The notes under the pieces were generated by a model. That model searched no databases. It saw only the letters and a list, made by a program, of their open reading frames with translations, and had not been told where the DNA came from. The position numbers and the translations under genes are program-made. DNA of 64,000 nucleotides from an uncultured Anaerolinea sp. Its GTDB lineage: Bacteria > Chloroflexota > Anaerolineae > Anaerolineales > Villigracilaceae. Of this stretch, positions 1-38,552 are shown one piece after another (the first letter of the stretch is position 1; every line of letters begins with the position of its first letter). The stretch lies in the NCBI GenBank assembly GCA_964607645.1, contig CAZSLN010000001.1, positions 70,577-134,576 on the forward strand. Direction: 5' to 3'.

Positions 1-329
1 ATCCTAACCCCGCCTTGGAAGGCAGAAATATGCTTGACCCACTCAATATCCGATACTGGGATCTTTTCTTTCCTCATTCCCCAGTTGATCTGCAGAAAAT
101 TGCGATCGAGGAAATAGTTCGCTTTCGCTAATCCATAGATCCGGTAACCAAAGATCGGGATAAAAACTCCCGATAAGATCAATAAAAAAATATAGAGTGT
201 TAGGAATATCCCAATCTCCTCCGTAATGATCTGGAACAACGAAAAAATCATAAAAGCAAAAGCGATCGCTAGCAAAACGGAATGAATGATCAACCCTCTC
301 TTTCGAGCGGGTGGAAATTCACTGATCAT
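1..329 (-). CDS. membrane protein with bacterial PH (bPH_2, YdbS/YdbT-like) domain; 5' part only, gene runs off the window
   Basis: Not in the ORF track because no stop lies inside the window. My own translation of the minus strand from the ATG at 329-327 gives MISEFPPARKRGLIIHSVLLAIAFAFMIFSLFQ...LTLYIFLLILSGVFIPIFGY (two hydrophobic helices). It continues YFLDRNFLQINWGMRKEKIPVSDIEWV, the usual bPH_2 pattern. The ATG overlaps the TGA of the upstream DegT gene (ATGA). Confidence 0.55.
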   Translation of the reverse strand, partial: MISEFPPARKRGLIIHSVLLAIAFAFMIFSLFQIITEEIGIFLTLYIFLLILSGVFIPIFGYRIYGLAKANYFLDRNFLQINWGMRKEKIPVSDIEWVKHISAFQGGVR

Positions 330-1495
330 CAGGCAAGCTCCTGCTTTAGCACGTCACATACATATTGAACTTGTTCTAAGGTCATAACTCCGCTAAATGG
401 TAATGCAACACCGCGCAATCCCAAGTCTTCGGTAACTGGGTAATCTCCGGGTTGATACCCAAATTTTTCTACCATGTAGGGTTGTAAATGAATGGGTAAG
501 AAGTATGGTCGAACAGGTACACCTTTTGCTTCCAAGTTAGAAGCAAATTGCTGACGGTCGATCTTCTTCGCCAAACGAATGACAAATACGAACCAGGACA
601 TTCTGGTGGTCTCAGGCGCAAGGATCGGCAATTCGACCTCCGTTACATCCGCTAATTGTTCAAGATACCATTTAGCAACCTGCTCACGGCGGGCGATCAT
701 ACTATCTACCCGTGTAATCTGGCTTATTCCAAGCGCCGAAGACATTTCGTCAAGGCGGTAGTTGTAACCTAGGTATGTGTGAGACAACCAAGTATCCCCT
801 GGAGCACGACCTTGGTTGCGAAGGGCTTTCATCAAATTTGCGGCGGTGTCATCGTTGGTGATGACAATTCCACCCTCACCGGTAGTGATCTGTTTGTTGG
901 GGTAAAAAGCAAAAATGCCGAATTTTCCAAACAAGCCAGCATTTTTGCCTTTATAGGTTGCTCCTAAAGCCTCACAAGAGTCTTCGATGATCTCTAAATG
1001 ATACTGCTCGGCGATCTCAAGAATGGGGTCATAATTCGCTGGTTGGCCAAATACATCCACTGGTAGGATCGCCTTCAGCATGCCCTTACCCGCGTTTTTG
1101 CGGGGCAGCCATTTTTTTGCCTTTTCGCCCCCGGTGGCAATATCCTTCACCGCCTGTCGCAACTGGTCAACGCTAATATTGCCAGTTTTATAGTCTACGT
1201 CTACATAAATCGGCACGGCGTTTTCAAACAACAAAGCATTGGTGGAAGCGACAAAGGAAAAAGGAGATGTAACCACTCTATCTTCCGCTGTTATTCCCGC
1301 TGCCCGAACGGTCAAGTGCAACCCAGCCGTCCCAGAATTAACCGCGATAGCATGTTTAACACCAATGTATTCGGCAACTTTTTTCTCAAACTCCACAACT
1401 TTCGGACCAAGGCTTAGTATTGGAGTATTCATCACATCCATTACAGCTTGACGATCCGCTTCGGTTAGATCAGGGGAAGACATAGGGATTTTCAT
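329..1495 (-). CDS. DegT/DnrJ/EryC1/StrS-family PLP-dependent sugar aminotransferase
   Basis: 388-aa ORF. Family-typical N-terminus (SPDLTEADRQAV..., NSGTAGLHL) and PLP-lysine region FAFYPNKQITTGEGGIV. The start overlaps the upstream gene's stop by 4 nt. Confidence 0.9.
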   Translation of the reverse strand: MKIPMSSPDLTEADRQAVMDVMNTPILSLGPKVVEFEKKVAEYIGVKHAIAVNSGTAGLHLTVRAAGITAEDRVVTSPFSFVASTNALLFENAVPIYVDVDYKTGNISVDQLRQAVKDIATGGEKAKKWLPRKNAGKGMLKAILPVDVFGQPANYDPILEIAEQYHLEIIEDSCEALGATYKGKNAGLFGKFGIFAFYPNKQITTGEGGIVITNDDTAANLMKALRNQGRAPGDTWLSHTYLGYNYRLDEMSSALGISQITRVDSMIARREQVAKWYLEQLADVTEVELPILAPETTRMSWFVFVIRLAKKIDRQQFASNLEAKGVPVRPYFLPIHLQPYMVEKFGYQPGDYPVTEDLGLRGVALPFSGVMTLEQVQYVCDVLKQELA

Positions 1496-2739
1496 AGCGA
1501 AGTTCCACTTCTTTCCAGCATTGCGGCTAATTGTGCGAGCAACACTGCTTCCAGATCAGTAAGCTTCACCATTCTATTCATGGTGCCGGCTCTCGGTTTT
1601 ACTTCAACTTCCTGATTTTGCAATCCGCGCTCACCAACGGTCACCCGTATGGGGCATCCGATCAGATCCGCGTCATTAAACTTAATGCCAGCCCTTTCAT
1701 CGCGAACATCCAATAACACAGTGATGCCTACCTCCGCCAGCCGATCATTTATATCCCGAGCGATCTGAGCGGTATCCATTGTGCTGCCCGGGAGGTTCAT
1801 GAGATACACCTGAAACGGCGAAAAGGGAGCGGGAATTTTCAACCCTCTTTCATCCGAAGCAGTTTCAGCAAGGAACTTAAGGATATTCTCAGGGATAACA
1901 ACATGATCAGCGCCGCATTGAAAAGCCTTGTTGCTCGATAACGGTCTTGAACATGCGGGGCAGGCTTCCCCAACGTTCATCAACGTCACATCAGCGACGA
2001 TGTCCGCTGAATAATCCCGATCGATATTCGTATTGAGCAGGTGGCAGCCACCCTCATTCGCGCCAGCGACCAAGTTTTTGGATTTCGCGACAATTGAATC
2101 AACGATGATCATAGCGTTGGTGACCCCGATCGGTGAGGCATACCCCGGTATCGCGCCGGTCGCGAGAATTTCATCTTGCGTAGCTAAGCGATATTCGCCA
2201 ACTAGCGCGGTAAGTTTTTCATCACTCAACTGACGGTCACCCCTCAGAACAACAAAGAGGAATTTCCCGTCCGAAACCCGCGTGAACATCAATGCTTTCG
2301 CTGTCTTTGTTGGTGAAACTTTTAAGAAATCTGCGAGACTATTGATCGTGCTGCACTCCGGGGTCTTAATTTTTTCGAGAGGTTTCATTTCTTCAGCAGA
2401 ATCCAGAGCGACCCTAGATTCCACTAAAGTGGTTCGCTCAGCGAAATAACATTCCGGGCAAAACAAAACGTCAAAGTCCCCGTCATCGTGCGAGAGGTAA
2501 TAATTGCCACTGGTTTGGGAACCCACGGCAAGCAAGCCAACATCTTCCAGCCATTCCAATTTTTCAGAAAAGCTACCATTCAATAATGCTCGAATTTTTT
2601 CTATGGTTTCTTGCCCCAGCGGGAGCCAGCTCAAATCTCGCTGAAGGTAAGAGGCTCTGTATAAAAAGGAAGCCCCTGGGGTTCTAAATTCAGAAGGGGC
2701 TGATCGTTGGGTCTGGATGTTTAGATCAGAATAATTCAT
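1492..2739 (-). CDS. prolyl-tRNA synthetase-like protein with INS/YbaK-type editing domain and class II anticodon-binding domain, apparently lacking the catalytic core
   Basis: 415-aa ORF. The N-terminal ~50 aa resemble bacterial ProRS (LNIQTQRSAPSE...ASFLYRASYLQ...SWLPLG). The central part resembles the ProRS INS domain (TAKALMFTR..FLFVVLRGDRQLSDEKL, GAIPGYASPIG, GANEGGCHLLNTN). The C-terminus resembles the anticodon-binding domain (APFQVYLM...LLDVRDERAGIKFNDADLIGCPIRVTVGER). I find no fRDE-type motif 2 and no GxGxGxxR motif 3, and the protein is about 150 aa shorter than bacterial ProRS. Confidence 0.75.
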   Translation of the reverse strand: MNYSDLNIQTQRSAPSEFRTPGASFLYRASYLQRDLSWLPLGQETIEKIRALLNGSFSEKLEWLEDVGLLAVGSQTSGNYYLSHDDGDFDVLFCPECYFAERTTLVESRVALDSAEEMKPLEKIKTPECSTINSLADFLKVSPTKTAKALMFTRVSDGKFLFVVLRGDRQLSDEKLTALVGEYRLATQDEILATGAIPGYASPIGVTNAMIIVDSIVAKSKNLVAGANEGGCHLLNTNIDRDYSADIVADVTLMNVGEACPACSRPLSSNKAFQCGADHVVIPENILKFLAETASDERGLKIPAPFSPFQVYLMNLPGSTMDTAQIARDINDRLAEVGITVLLDVRDERAGIKFNDADLIGCPIRVTVGERGLQNQEVEVKPRAGTMNRMVKLTDLEAVLLAQLAAMLERSGTSL

Positions 2740-3170
2740 TATGGTTTTTCGTCTTCCGTTCGTTCGGGGCTGTCGTCCAGTCCCAAGTCAATTTTTTCTT
2801 CCATCTTCATTTGGCCTCGTAAAAAGGCCCCTTCTTCCGTAACAAAAGCGATGGTTGTCACATCACCCCAGATCCGTCCTGTGGAGCGAATCTCGAGTTT
2901 TTGTGTGGTGATATTGCCCTTAACCGCCCCGGCGACGATCACGGTAGCTGCCCGGATGTTTTCGCAGGTAACTTTGCCGCTTTCCCCAACCACAAGCATA
3001 CCTTGCAAGCCAATTTGTCCTTCAAACGTTCCCTCAATACGAACACCACCTGAACCGCTGATCTTTCCTTCCCAGACCAGCCCAGGGCCAAGGATAGAGT
3101 TAATCCTTTCCATGGAAGGAACGGTAATGGAGGGTTGTGTTTGTGAGGGCGATGCGTTTCGTTTAAACAT
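2739..3170 (-). CDS. bactofilin-family cytoskeletal protein
   Basis: 143-aa ORF with a repetitive beta-helix pattern: GSGGVRIEGTFEGQIGLQGMLVVGESGKVTCENIRAATVIVAGAVKGNITTQKLEIRSTGRIWGDV. The stop shares 1 nt with the next start (TAATG). Confidence 0.85.
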   Translation of the reverse strand: MFKRNASPSQTQPSITVPSMERINSILGPGLVWEGKISGSGGVRIEGTFEGQIGLQGMLVVGESGKVTCENIRAATVIVAGAVKGNITTQKLEIRSTGRIWGDVTTIAFVTEEGAFLRGQMKMEEKIDLGLDDSPERTEDEKP

Positions 3171-35667: not shown

Positions 35668-36027
35668 TTACCAATTATGACCAGTCGATGAATAATTCTC
35701 GAGCATCTTATTAAAGATTGCTTCATCAGCCGGAGTGATACTTATGATCTTATATCCCTCGATAAAAGCCGAAGTGTCAAATGGATCAGGTTTGATCCAC
35801 ATAACCCGTGCGACAAAAGTTACGAAATTTCTCTCGAATATTTCGCCGGTGAGATCGATTCTCAGCGTGTAATCTCGATTTACTCCGTGTGGTTTTACCG
35901 AATCCAATCGAAAACCGCGCGGGCTAATATCTGTAATATAACCAAACAACTCTAAAGTTACATTCTCAAATACCTGAACATAATATGAGAATTTTCTCCG
36001 GTTGTTTGTTCTGTTTTCATTTGGCAT
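35668..36027 (-). CDS. single-domain PilZ (c-di-GMP-binding) protein
   Basis: 119-aa ORF with RxxxR (RTNNRRK) and D-x-S-x-x-G (DISPRG) PilZ motifs. Confidence 0.7.
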   Translation of the reverse strand: MPNENRTNNRRKFSYYVQVFENVTLELFGYITDISPRGFRLDSVKPHGVNRDYTLRIDLTGEIFERNFVTFVARVMWIKPDPFDTSAFIEGYKIISITPADEAIFNKMLENYSSTGHNW

Positions 36028-36242
36028 ATTTTATCCTTAGGTGCGAAAATAATTATAGATTATTCCCGCCAAACCTTCAAGCAGTACATCTTGTTGTTCA
36101 ACCTGTTGAAAGATAACAAACCATTAATTTCAAAAGGTTTTAAACTGATAGTTGCTTAAATATGGCGTATTATACTAAAATGAAACAGAAAAGTTAACAT
36201 CTATTAATTAACCAAGTTTTTTATAAATTTTTTCATAACCTT

Positions 36243-37913
36243 ATGACCATCATCGTTCAACCACGATCATTTTTTCTTTTTGGAATTGCCATCTTCGCTC
36301 TGATCACCGCGATTCTTGCCTGGAACCGCCGTGGCTCACGCGGGGGGATCAGCTTGATGTTTACCCTTCTCCTTGTTACTGGGTGGTGCGCTTTTAGCGC
36401 GATCGACAGCTCTGCTGATGTGTTTGAACAAAAAATCTTCTTTGCCAAAGTTGCCACTACTTGTATCTTATTTGTACCTACATTTATGTTGATCGCTGTT
36501 CAGGAAATACTCACCGACTCTGAAGTAGCCAAAACGCATTTAGTTACATATATGGTTTTCCCAATCTTGATAACCATTATCGTTTGGACAAATGATCTTC
36601 ACTTGCTCTATTGGGCAGGATACAAGGTAACAAACCCAGATCTTAACCTCATAACTTTCGAGCACTCCATTTTTTACTGGATCAATATTCTGTACCAATT
36701 TGGCATTCTTGCCCATACAACTTTTATGCTGGTAATGGCCACCAAGGATAAAAAAAGTAGGACAAAAGCTTATTTGTTACTTTGCGGCGTAATGGCCCCC
36801 TGGCTAACAACAACCTTATATTTACTTGGGTTAACTTTCATTCCCAATCTTGATATCTCGCCTTTTGGTTTTCTAATCACAGCACCCGTTTTTCTCGTTG
36901 GCATAAATCAATTCGACTTGCTTGAGATCGGGGCTGCCGGGAGAATAACCTACACAGATAGTACAAAAGACGCAATCATCATTCTTAACAACCAAGAGAA
37001 TATTGTTGACGCAAATCGATCCGCAAAAAAATATTTTGGGGTAACAAAAGGGGCGAATATCAATGACTATCCTCAGATCGCAACCGCGATAAGTAATAAA
37101 CAAACCGATTCGAGCAATACCTATTTTTCGAATAACATCGAGGTCGCGCTTGATTCTGATTGGCTTACACTTAATCTGACCATAGAGAATACGCTTGGCA
37201 AGGATGGATCTGTCCTTGGCAAAGTCATGATCTTTCGCGATATCTCATATGCCATCACATTGGCGAAAGGTCTACACGAGGCTGAAATATTAGCGATCCA
37301 GGAAAACGAACAAAAAAGACTCGGTAAAGAGATCCACGATCGCATTTCACAAGGTCTGTATTCATTGTCACTTTTCAGTGCTACCGCAAAAAACCATGCT
37401 CTACGGGGCAATTATGTCGCCGTGATGGAGGTAATCGACGACATCAACGGTATGGCTCAGCAAGTAATCAAGGAAACGAATTTGTTGTTTTACGAGTTGG
37501 AGCCAGAGTCTTTTTTTAAGATCGGGATTGTTAAGGCACTAACGGAACAGGCAGAAGTAATTGCAAACCGTTATGACGTCAGGATCAAGTATCACTTCAA
37601 TTTCACAAATACGATTCCGTTAGAATTTCAAAAAAATCTTTACAATATCATTTCTGAGATCAATAATCATGTTCTAAATTTATCTAGACCAGACGAAATA
37701 ATTATCTCGCTGACAGACGTCTCAGACCACTTTAAAATTGAAGTTGCAATTTTAGACAACAAAATGATAAAATCAGTATTAACACAAAACCACATCGATA
37801 AATTTGATAACTTAATAGACAAATTTCATAAGCTTGACGCACGCTTTGAAATCATCGACGCAACCCCTGGTAAAAAATTTATCATTGTTGAGTTACCCAT
37901 TTTATATTTATGA
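36243..37913 (+). CDS. sensor histidine kinase: N-terminal 7TM domain, PAS-like region, HisKA_3 dimerisation domain, atypical ATPase domain
   Basis: 556-aa ORF. About seven N-terminal hydrophobic helices. H-box EIHDRISQGLYSL (NarX/DesK type). The C-terminal region aligns to HATPase_c only loosely (see findings). Confidence 0.75.
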   Translation: MTIIVQPRSFFLFGIAIFALITAILAWNRRGSRGGISLMFTLLLVTGWCAFSAIDSSADVFEQKIFFAKVATTCILFVPTFMLIAVQEILTDSEVAKTHLVTYMVFPILITIIVWTNDLHLLYWAGYKVTNPDLNLITFEHSIFYWINILYQFGILAHTTFMLVMATKDKKSRTKAYLLLCGVMAPWLTTTLYLLGLTFIPNLDISPFGFLITAPVFLVGINQFDLLEIGAAGRITYTDSTKDAIIILNNQENIVDANRSAKKYFGVTKGANINDYPQIATAISNKQTDSSNTYFSNNIEVALDSDWLTLNLTIENTLGKDGSVLGKVMIFRDISYAITLAKGLHEAEILAIQENEQKRLGKEIHDRISQGLYSLSLFSATAKNHALRGNYVAVMEVIDDINGMAQQVIKETNLLFYELEPESFFKIGIVKALTEQAEVIANRYDVRIKYHFNFTNTIPLEFQKNLYNIISEINNHVLNLSRPDEIIISLTDVSDHFKIEVAILDNKMIKSVLTQNHIDKFDNLIDKFHKLDARFEIIDATPGKKFIIVELPILYL

Positions 37914-37922
37914 GAGAAGGCT

Positions 37923-38552
37923 ATGACAACTAAAGTTTTTATTTGCGACGACCATGATATTTTGCGAAAAGGTCTTCGCTCATTACTTCAGACCGTACAG
38001 GATCTTGAAGTAGTTGGAGAAGCGGCAGATGGGGAAACTGCAGTCGAAATGATCAAAGAATTAGAACCAGATGTGATCTTGATGGATCTGCTTATGCCTG
38101 GCATTGGGGGTGTTGAGGCTATCAGACAAATTAAGAAATTGAATCAAGAGTCACACATTTTGGTTTTGTCGAGCTCGCATGAGGATGAACTGGTCGTCTC
38201 ATCTATTCGTGCTGGCGCCATTGGATATCTGGTTAAAACATCTTCACCAGATGATTTAATCGATGGTATTAGACGTGTAGCGAACGGCCAATCCGTCTTA
38301 CCACCCGATATTTCTAATAAACTTCTATCCGCTATGCAGGATCCGAGGATCCCTAGCATAACACTGACTCACCGCGAGATCGATGTACTAAAGTTGATCG
38401 GCGAAGGGTTATCAAATCGTGATATCTCACAGGTTCTTGAGATTTCCGAAAATACGGTTATTAGCCATGTTGGAAGAATTTTAAACAAGTTAGAACTCGA
38501 TAACCGAACGCAAGCCGCGTTATACGCGCGAAAACAAGGTTTGGTTCGATAA
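37923..38552 (+). CDS. NarL/LuxR-family response regulator
   Basis: 209-aa ORF. Receiver motifs ICDDHD and VILMDLLMPG. LuxR HTH LTHREIDVLKLIGEGLSNRDISQVLEISENTVISHV. Confidence 0.9.
   Translation: MTTKVFICDDHDILRKGLRSLLQTVQDLEVVGEAADGETAVEMIKELEPDVILMDLLMPGIGGVEAIRQIKKLNQESHILVLSSSHEDELVVSSIRAGAIGYLVKTSSPDDLIDGIRRVANGQSVLPPDISNKLLSAMQDPRIPSITLTHREIDVLKLIGEGLSNRDISQVLEISENTVISHVGRILNKLELDNRTQAALYARKQGLVR

Follow-up and report, generated by a model that had tools for sequence, protein, structure and literature searches.

A ProRS-derived gene without an aminoacylation core in an uncultured Anaerolinea, encoding a candidate anticodon-guided trans-editing factor

The ProRS-derived gene and its product

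The subject of this report is a gene on the minus strand of a 64,000-nucleotide stretch of DNA from an uncultured Anaerolinea sp. (positions 70,577 to 134,576 of contig CAZSLN010000001.1, assembly GCA_964607645.1), which we call the window. The gene, an ATG-initiated open reading frame (ORF) at 1492..2739, encodes a 415-amino acid (aa) protein that is recognisable from its Pfam domains, predicted fold and pattern of selection as a derivative of prolyl-tRNA synthetase (ProRS) from which the aminoacylation core is missing; with its relatives of about 400 aa it is referred to as the short form, and all features given here for this gene and its two immediate neighbours lie on the minus strand. Pfam finds tRNA_edit (PF04073) at residues 126-238 with an E-value of 6e-20 and HGTP_anticodon (PF03129) at residues 310-401 with an E-value of 2e-16. 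The same scan returned no match to tRNA-synt_2b (PF00587) even at E<=1, a model with which the positive control, E. coli ProS, scores 128 bits. The product also scores below the cut-offs of the NCBIfam proS equivalog PRK09194 (217 bits; cut-off 558), TIGR00409 (141; cut-off 307), the YbaK equivalog TIGR00011 (23 bits; cut-off 153) and the Ser-tRNA(Thr) hydrolase model NF011500 (20 bits, from the anticodon-binding domain only; cut-off 362).

Alignment with phmmer places residues 3-65, 71-276 and 285-400 of the product on residues 3-68, 201-409 and 447-561 of E. faecalis ProRS (2j3l), and a profile of the short-form family places positions 1-60, 70-268 and 277-395 on E. coli ProS 1-64, 206-410 and 448-567. 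Where ProRS has two separate blocks of ~141 and ~37 residues (E. coli ~65-205 and ~411-447), the product has ~17 residues in their place; with these blocks have gone part of motif 1, the TxE loop, motif 2, the GxFxLG segment and motif 3. Pairwise comparison yields a weak match for the N-terminus, which the family profile nonetheless places solely on ProRS 1-60; a MAFFT alignment that set the N-terminus against the motif 2 region was rejected as an artefact on the evidence of that profile.

Four parts can be distinguished along the protein. An N-terminal remnant of the class II core (residues 1-110; 2410..2739), assigned from the profile match to E. coli ProS 1-60, phmmer and the structural model, is made up of the N-terminal helices of ProRS (1-66) followed by four beta-strands (72-102), modelled with a predicted local distance difference test score (pLDDT) of 82-97; the remainder of motif 1, the TxE loop and motif 2 have been deleted between ~residues 57 and 70. 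The INS/YbaK-fold editing domain follows (residues 111-255; 1975..2409), as indicated by PF04073 and the alignment to 2j3l 201-409. A second, C-terminal core remnant (residues 256-300; 1840..1974), delimited by the alignment series, the domain boundaries, the model and a ratio of nonsynonymous to synonymous substitution (dN/dS) of 0.17, contains one long strand (268-277) and a helix (283-293) corresponding to the motif 3 helix, the motif 3 glycines, the motif 3 Arg and the GxFxLG segment having been deleted or lost. The protein closes with a class IIa anticodon-binding domain (ABD; residues 301-402; 1534..1839), identified from PF03129 and the alignment to 2j3l 447-561.

Within the editing domain, alignment and conservation identify K148 in TAKALMF as the equivalent of E. 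coli K279 (2296..2298) and H233 in GGCH as that of H369 (2041..2043), and conservation marks out the GxxxP loop of the editing site, G199-Y-A-S-P203 (2131..2145). Two CxxC pairs stand at the base of INS, C94-P-E-C97 on its N-terminal side (2449..2460) and C260-P-A-C263 on its C-terminal side (1951..1962). An earlier interpretation made from the DNA letters without database searches (the sequence-only reading) had described this composition: about 50 residues of ProRS N-terminus, a split Cys pair as in some ProRS, a complete-looking INS with its Lys, GYASP loop and His, a normal class II ABD, and the absence of roughly 150 residues bearing motifs 1-3. Profile, Pfam and the alignments to 2j3l and E. 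coli ProS bear out each element, and the Pfam outcome is exactly the one it had predicted, that is, PF04073 and PF03129 and no PF00587.

An AlphaFold2 model built on a 103-sequence alignment has a mean pLDDT of 92.6 and a predicted template-modelling (TM) score of 0.86. Its best fold matches in the PDB are bacterial ProRS, 2j3l having an E-value of 2e-34 and a query-normalised TM-score of 0.75; hence, the mutual arrangement of core remnant, INS and ABD is ProRS-like. Among 5.8 billion proteins searched, the short form has more than 3500 homologs. The best 120 of these are 389-424 aa long, have the same two Pfam domains and share 47-53% identity with the window protein; where a source is named it is a metagenome-assembled genome (MAG) of Anaerolineales, Anaerolineae or Chloroflexota, and where an annotation is named it is either 'YbaK/EbsC family protein' or 'proline--tRNA ligase'. 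The identical 415-aa protein is present in five independent metagenome assemblies, and gene copies that encode identical proteins differ at synonymous positions only. Against a 96%-identical ortholog (dS 0.18), dN/dS is 0.11 overall and 0.069, 0.20, 0.17 and 0.054 in the N-terminal remnant, INS, residues 256-300 and ABD, respectively, so that purifying selection acts on every part of the short form; the flanking bactofilin and DegT genes have a dN/dS of 0.05. The structural comparison and the survey of relatives proposed by the sequence-only reading came out in its favour, in that no intact motif 2 or 3 is found by profile or by fold, and thousands of orthologs, the low dN/dS and a fixed locus refute a decaying pseudogene. 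The gene almost certainly encodes a ProRS-derived protein that is dead for aminoacylation and maintained by selection. As judged from its sequence, it would be incapable of activating proline or charging tRNA, and since it cannot be the cell's ProRS, another ProRS must exist.

A same-locus series from intact to core-excised forms

The gene lies between a bactofilin gene upstream (2739..3170), the TAA stop of which overlaps its ATG (TAATG), and a DegT/DnrJ/EryC1 aminotransferase gene downstream (329..1495), the start of which overlaps its stop codon (ATGA). The bactofilin neighbour is kept in all orthologous loci and the DegT family (PF01041) is found in orthologous loci, downstream in most, within a fixed neighbourhood of Pur_DNA_glyco, FabI-like SDR, bactofilin, the ProRS-derived gene (X), usually DegT, then bPH_5 and DUF92.

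Relatives were sought exhaustively among 1.84 billion representative proteins, where about ten clusters at 50% identity account for the ~400-aa form. Next in rank come proteins of 490-590 aa, matched in three stretches, which retain the ProRS N-terminus, the conserved SYRQLP stretch, both CxxC pairs, INS and ABD; in 12 of the 13 tested there is no PF00587 match, and motif 2, the TxE loop, the GxFxLG segment and motif 3 are scrambled. Such long, ProRS-like proteins with a degenerate core are here called dead-core forms. Core status was judged by profile scoring of the true core combined with Pfam; strict FRDE and TxE pattern matching had been dropped, true Anaerolineae ProRS having WRDD and MTHEE at these places. 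Genuine ProRS score 180-277 bits with the N-terminal and 59-115 bits with the C-terminal core profile, and short forms ~0 bits with both, while about 110 of the 118 long representatives score mostly 0-80 bits and 0-40 bits, respectively. The dead-core family spans 490-610 aa and about 110 clusters at 50% identity (P0248, P0252, P0255-P0388; L025, L034, L065, L082), and is found in Anaerolineae and Ardenticatenia, and, as a borderline case, on a Calditrichia chromosome (L065); many of its members are annotated as prolyl-tRNA synthetase.

The three kinds of protein meet at one locus. An intact P-type proS adjoins the same bactofilin gene in L019 (Anaerolinea sp.), in L020, L022 and L028 (Anaerolineaceae) and in L046 (Leptolinea sp.), and the slot genes of L019 and L020 match PF00587 with 92-93 bits. 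The bactofilin-X-DegT slot is occupied by a 567-aa dead-core gene in L034 and, on a 1.48-Mb contig, by P0265, the closest dead-core sister of the short form at 525 aa. Motif 2 reads TKWRDDPRPRAGLIRVREF in intact L019, AAWSPTP-AGGGLFRSRLPF in L034 and VIHGETQ--AQGLFGVKIAT in P0265, and is deleted in the short form; the TxE loop passes from MTHEE in L019 to PGQDA in L034 and is deleted in P0265 and the short form; the GxFxLG segment is GNIFKLGTRYT in L019 and GEMLLADPTYS in L034, scrambled in P0265 and deleted in the short form; and motif 3 is GSYGIGVGR, GKYSLALTR and AQLVFDLGR in L019, L034 and P0265, its Arg being lost in the short form. A 523-aa ORF elsewhere (L037:2443-3456) keeps a recognisable motif 2 (KFRDEYRSRGGLLEAREF), lacks ~40 residues including the TxE region and has lost GxFxLG; its core profile scores of 106 and 41 bits lie between the classes, and it looks like an early-stage intermediate of decay.

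A neighbour-joining tree was built from the INS and ABD columns common to all forms; in 98 of 100 bootstrap replicates the short forms fall within the dead-core forms, true ProRS joining only further out. Strict monophyly of the short forms has 60% bootstrap support and, as a consequence, the excision may have occurred more than once and a single event is not claimed. A genome scan with one ABD peptide returned at least 600 rows, a result that says nothing on the absence of the gene from any genome. Beyond what the sequence-only reading had recognised, the window gene is the positional ortholog of the housekeeping P-type proS; its locus shows a series of in-place decay, of which it is the end point after the full-length dead-core forms. 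The ProRS-derived pseudo-synthetases, which keep a seemingly live editing site and an anticodon reader, form a large and diverse family that has apparently escaped description, and the window gene is its most reduced member.

Loss of the core has left the editing and anticodon-reading residues unaltered. We compared 38 sites in 138 short, 116 dead-core and 79 true ProRS sequences and found no class-specific substitution at any of them. Conserved at 100% in all three classes are (E. coli numbering) T257, I263, K279, G300, G336, D350, G362-A-N364, H369 and D378; G199 of the window protein is likewise at 100%, and P203 at 91-99%. The residues of the cis-acting INS that form the pocket for Ala (E. 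coli I263, L266 and H369) are retained as I132, L135 and H233, all three being invariant within the short-form family. Over the ~250 dead-core and short sequences, at a mean identity of 35%, the catalytic and pocket residues of INS do not vary. In the ABD, D344, R346, G351, K353, F354, D356, D358 and G361 are at ~100% in short, dead-core and true forms, and the signature in E. coli numbering (D510, R512, G517, F520, D522, G527, P529) is essentially invariant in all classes. C94 and C260 are invariant and C97 and C263 are conserved at >=97% in these same forms, and the comparison of the three classes puts the four cysteines at 95-99%; we take them to be a putative four-Cys zinc site at the base of INS. 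The CxxC...CxxC pair flanking INS is present in 95-99% of the true P-type ProRS sampled (from Chloroflexota, Spirochaetota, Bacillota and others), E. coli ProS having S224/S227 and S396/G399 at these positions, a pattern pointing to a structural zinc site that is widely distributed but missing from the model enzymes.

A candidate proofreader of tRNAPro, its partner and its rivals

The explanation that best accommodates these observations as a whole, to which we give a probability of roughly 0.6, is that the short form ('ProRS-ed') is a decayed proS that now acts as a trans-editor and would most probably serve an E-type ProRS. Its activity would probably be that of an anticodon-guided deacylase of Ala-tRNAPro, and the tRNAPro-targeted trans-editing factor that the sequence-only reading had put forward as speculation thus appears the best supported of its possible roles. 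We favour this reading because exactly the INS, the ABD and a scaffold of ProRS geometry have been retained, and because the biochemistry of these parts is established. K279A is the standard editing-dead ProRS and abolishes post-transfer editing (PMC3973320; bioRxiv 10.1101/2020.09.11.293571). L266 and H369 tune the INS pocket and its specificity for Ala, and H369 acts as a gatekeeper that excludes Pro-tRNAPro (bioRxiv 10.1101/2020.09.11.293571). INS by itself does not discriminate between tRNAs; it relies on recognition of G35/G36 by the ABD, and the identity of the acceptor stem is irrelevant for editing (PMC3973320).

The proposed history would begin with an ancestral P-type proS that lost its aminoacylation active site, after which most of the dead core would have been excised, leaving the N-terminal helices, four strands, the motif 3 helix, the putative Cys4 zinc knuckle, INS and ABD. 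In the present protein the ABD would bind tRNAPro at its anticodon bases G35/G36 in just the way that full-length ProRS does, the scaffold would keep INS in a ProRS-like position, and the 3' end of mischarged Ala-tRNAPro would enter the INS pocket and be hydrolysed. An E-type ProRS would have displaced the ancestral P-type enzyme, the old gene being kept for its editing module. Displacement of the synthetase was probably the trigger of pseudo-enzymisation.

E-type ProRS, which has no INS, is widespread in Anaerolineales, usually without a P-type copy alongside. Where a species has a ProRS without INS, a trans-editor (ProXp-ala) is normally required against Ala-tRNAPro (PMC3973320). With the E-type ProRS of L031 as a probe, 120 matches at >=75% identity were obtained, many of them named Anaerolineales or Anaerolineae; a T. 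thermophilus E-type probe (a 100% match to 1h4q) returned solely Deinococcota-like matches. The E-type gene has a conserved slot of its own, consisting of MazG-like, LOG, E-type proS, an optional P-type proS and DNA_alkylation; L031 and L096 have the P-type copy, and L097-L102 are without it. A tandem P-type gene occurs at 2 of the 47 metagenome E-type loci with >=2 kb downstream, and none of 80 metagenome E-type loci contains the bactofilin slot, a dead-core form or a short form. No canonical proS is found among the large ORFs of the window, and neither the flank and collection searches nor the 120 E-type matches revealed an E-type gene on the same contig or in the same genome as a short-form gene. 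The odds that the short form is paired with an E-type ProRS in its own genome appear even to us. We would also place at the midpoint of the scale the corresponding evolutionary claim, that this branch of the Anaerolineae handed prolyl-tRNA synthesis to an acquired E-type ProRS and then converted its P-type proS in place to a proofreader.

E-type and intact P-type genes can also stand in tandem. In L031 (7867-11209, an Anaerolineales MAG) and L089 (7137-11122, Ktedonosporobacter rubrisoli) a full-length E-type ProRS is directly followed by an intact P-type ProRS, and the same tandem occurs in L096 (6001-9262), L120, L124, L126 and L131. The arrangement resembles the dual ProRS that has reportedly been described for Bacillus thuringiensis.

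Several points weigh against the trans-editing explanation. The canonical ProRS of a short-form genome was never found in our searches and could be an INS-bearing P-type enzyme; with a partner that has its own INS, a plain editor of Ala-tRNAPro would be redundant. In a protein that has no core, the CCA end may reach INS by another path than in ProRS, and since the dimer interface of motif 1 is gone, the oligomeric state may differ as well. Furthermore, the genes with which the ProRS-derived gene is translationally coupled, bactofilin and DegT, have no link to translation. The window contains no tRNA gene and no Rfam family that we could find and, therefore, offers no T-box or tRNAPro link.

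The most probable of the alternatives is that the protein works beside an Ala-editing ProRS as a trans-editing deacylase of some other substrate (Cys-, Ser-, Thr- or Aze-tRNAPro, or another tRNA). Many Anaerolineae do have an intact, INS-bearing P-type ProRS, the specificities of the INS superfamily are diverse (PMC11295145), the paralog ProRSx has altered its tRNA specificity (PMC9437257), and the dN/dS of INS is the highest of the four parts. We nevertheless consider a changed substrate unlikely, since neither the Ala-specificity residues I263, L266 and H369 nor the ABD signature departs from true ProRS and the 38 compared sites hold no class-specific substitution.

A tRNAPro-binding protein without an editing role, in which INS would be a binding module only and the function one of sequestering, chaperoning, regulation or an aminoacyl-tRNA-dependent envelope pathway with bactofilin and DegT, would suit the intact and strongly constrained ABD, the start and stop codons that overlap those of both neighbours, and a gene order kept at ~50% protein identity. 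The full invariance of the INS catalytic and pocket residues would be unexpected were hydrolysis dispensable, however, and sister lineages have an ordinary housekeeping proS in the same slot, so that the neighbourhood is inherited and provides no evidence of a shared pathway; the cluster moreover mixes DNA repair, fatty-acid and sugar genes. Hence, we regard this role as rather improbable.

It is far less credible that the gene encodes half of a split or heteromeric prolyl-tRNA synthetase with its core supplied by another polypeptide. Split or fused aminoacyl-tRNA synthetases (aaRS) exist (PMC11580382) and the ProRS N-terminus and motif 3 helix have been retained, but the missing segments are two and non-contiguous, the orthologous long forms decay point by point in motif 2, TxE, GxFxLG and motif 3 with no clean split, and no ORF for the missing segments occurs in the window or at any orthologous locus. 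A functionless, decaying pseudogene or annotation artefact, to which the loss of the parent enzyme's essential core might point, is already refuted by the number of homologs and the shared architecture of the best 120, the identical protein in five metagenomes, the dN/dS, the confident fold and a frame that is intact in relatives at ~50% identity.

Relationship to known systems and the surrounding gene cluster

P-type ProRS, represented by 2j3l and E. coli ProS, is the direct parent of the short form, with which it shares the N-terminus, the INS residues, the ABD and the arrangement of domains; the window protein differs in being without the ~160 residues that bear the class II active site. 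ProXp-ala, YbaK and ProXp-x, -ST1, -ST2, -7, -8 and -9 have the same YbaK/INS fold and a catalytic Lys in common with it, and the task of ProXp-ala, the clearing of mischarged tRNAPro in trans, is the one predicted here for the window protein. These factors are single-domain proteins, ProXp-ala reading the acceptor stem and YbaK having no tRNA specificity, whereas the window protein has its own ABD and a remnant of the core, and descends directly from the cis-acting INS rather than from the YbaK or ProXp families. According to a 2024 review, all members of the INS superfamily other than the cis-acting INS are single-domain, and trans-editing factors are generally without RNA-binding domains (PMC11295145). 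If our explanation is correct, the superfamily gains a multi-domain trans-editor with its own anticodon reader.

The closest functional analogue, and not a homologous member, is the ThrRS-ed of Crenarchaeota, which is likewise derived from a synthetase, does not aminoacylate and combines an editing domain with an ABD. ThrRS-ed is depicted as a hydrolytic domain with an ABD and serves in trans a shortened threonyl-tRNA synthetase (ThrRS) that lacks an editing domain (PMC7373986; PMC11295145). It differs in belonging to the threonine system, in its DTD-like editing fold and in being archaeal, and its homology to the window protein extends to the ABD only; furthermore, its pairing with a synthetase is known, whereas a pairing of the window protein with an editing-less synthetase is our inference, and it is for the window protein that graded decay at one locus can be seen. 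The short form would be the bacterial ProRS counterpart of ThrRS-ed, with a division into ProRS-cat and ProRS-ed analogous to that of crenarchaeal ThrRS. ProRSx of Streptomyces is also a diverged P-type ProRS with a new role, but one that keeps aminoacylation and has changed its tRNA specificity (PMC9437257), the window protein having lost aminoacylation and kept ProRS-like ABD residues. ProRSx is the sole ProRS entry in a 2022 review of aaRS duplication (PMC9437257), and large-scale surveys of aaRS (including PMC11580382) mention only relatives of the YbaK/ProX type. We found no description of the dead-core or short-form architecture in the literature, many papers in subscription journals lying outside the search.

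How binding of the anticodon by the ABD directs the CCA end to the distant INS has been called an open question (PMC3973320) and 'poorly understood' (PMC11295145). Being a natural INS-scaffold-ABD protein of 400 aa, the short form lends itself as a minimal construct to structural and kinetic studies of this routing and, if the proposed activity is real, would demonstrate in a minimal natural case that ABD-directed editing by INS can do without the class II core. A fixed locus with intact, dead-core (567 and 525 aa) and core-excised (~400 aa) versions also provides an unusually clear case of stepwise pseudo-enzymisation and subfunctionalisation. In practical terms, thousands of these proteins annotated as 'proline--tRNA ligase' cause ProRS to be miscounted in Chloroflexota MAGs, by which estimates of completeness and metabolic inference can be misled.

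The surrounding genes were also compared. Between 329 and 6292 the window contains, in order, GT2, His_Phos_1, Pur_DNA_glyco, FabI-like SDR, bactofilin, the ProRS-derived gene, DegT, bPH_5 and DUF92; several start and stop codons overlap, and this order of functionally unrelated genes, which include those for DNA repair, fatty acids and sugars, is kept at ~50% protein identity across Anaerolineales (L006, L008, L010, L012, L103). Taken together, the cluster gives the impression of housekeeping genes that are unrelated but have stayed together. Further along the window, G+C content falls to 0.38 at 36001-38000 against ~0.46 elsewhere, a dip that surrounds an ORF (36243-37913) with an N-terminal 7TM histidine-kinase domain (HisKA_7TM).

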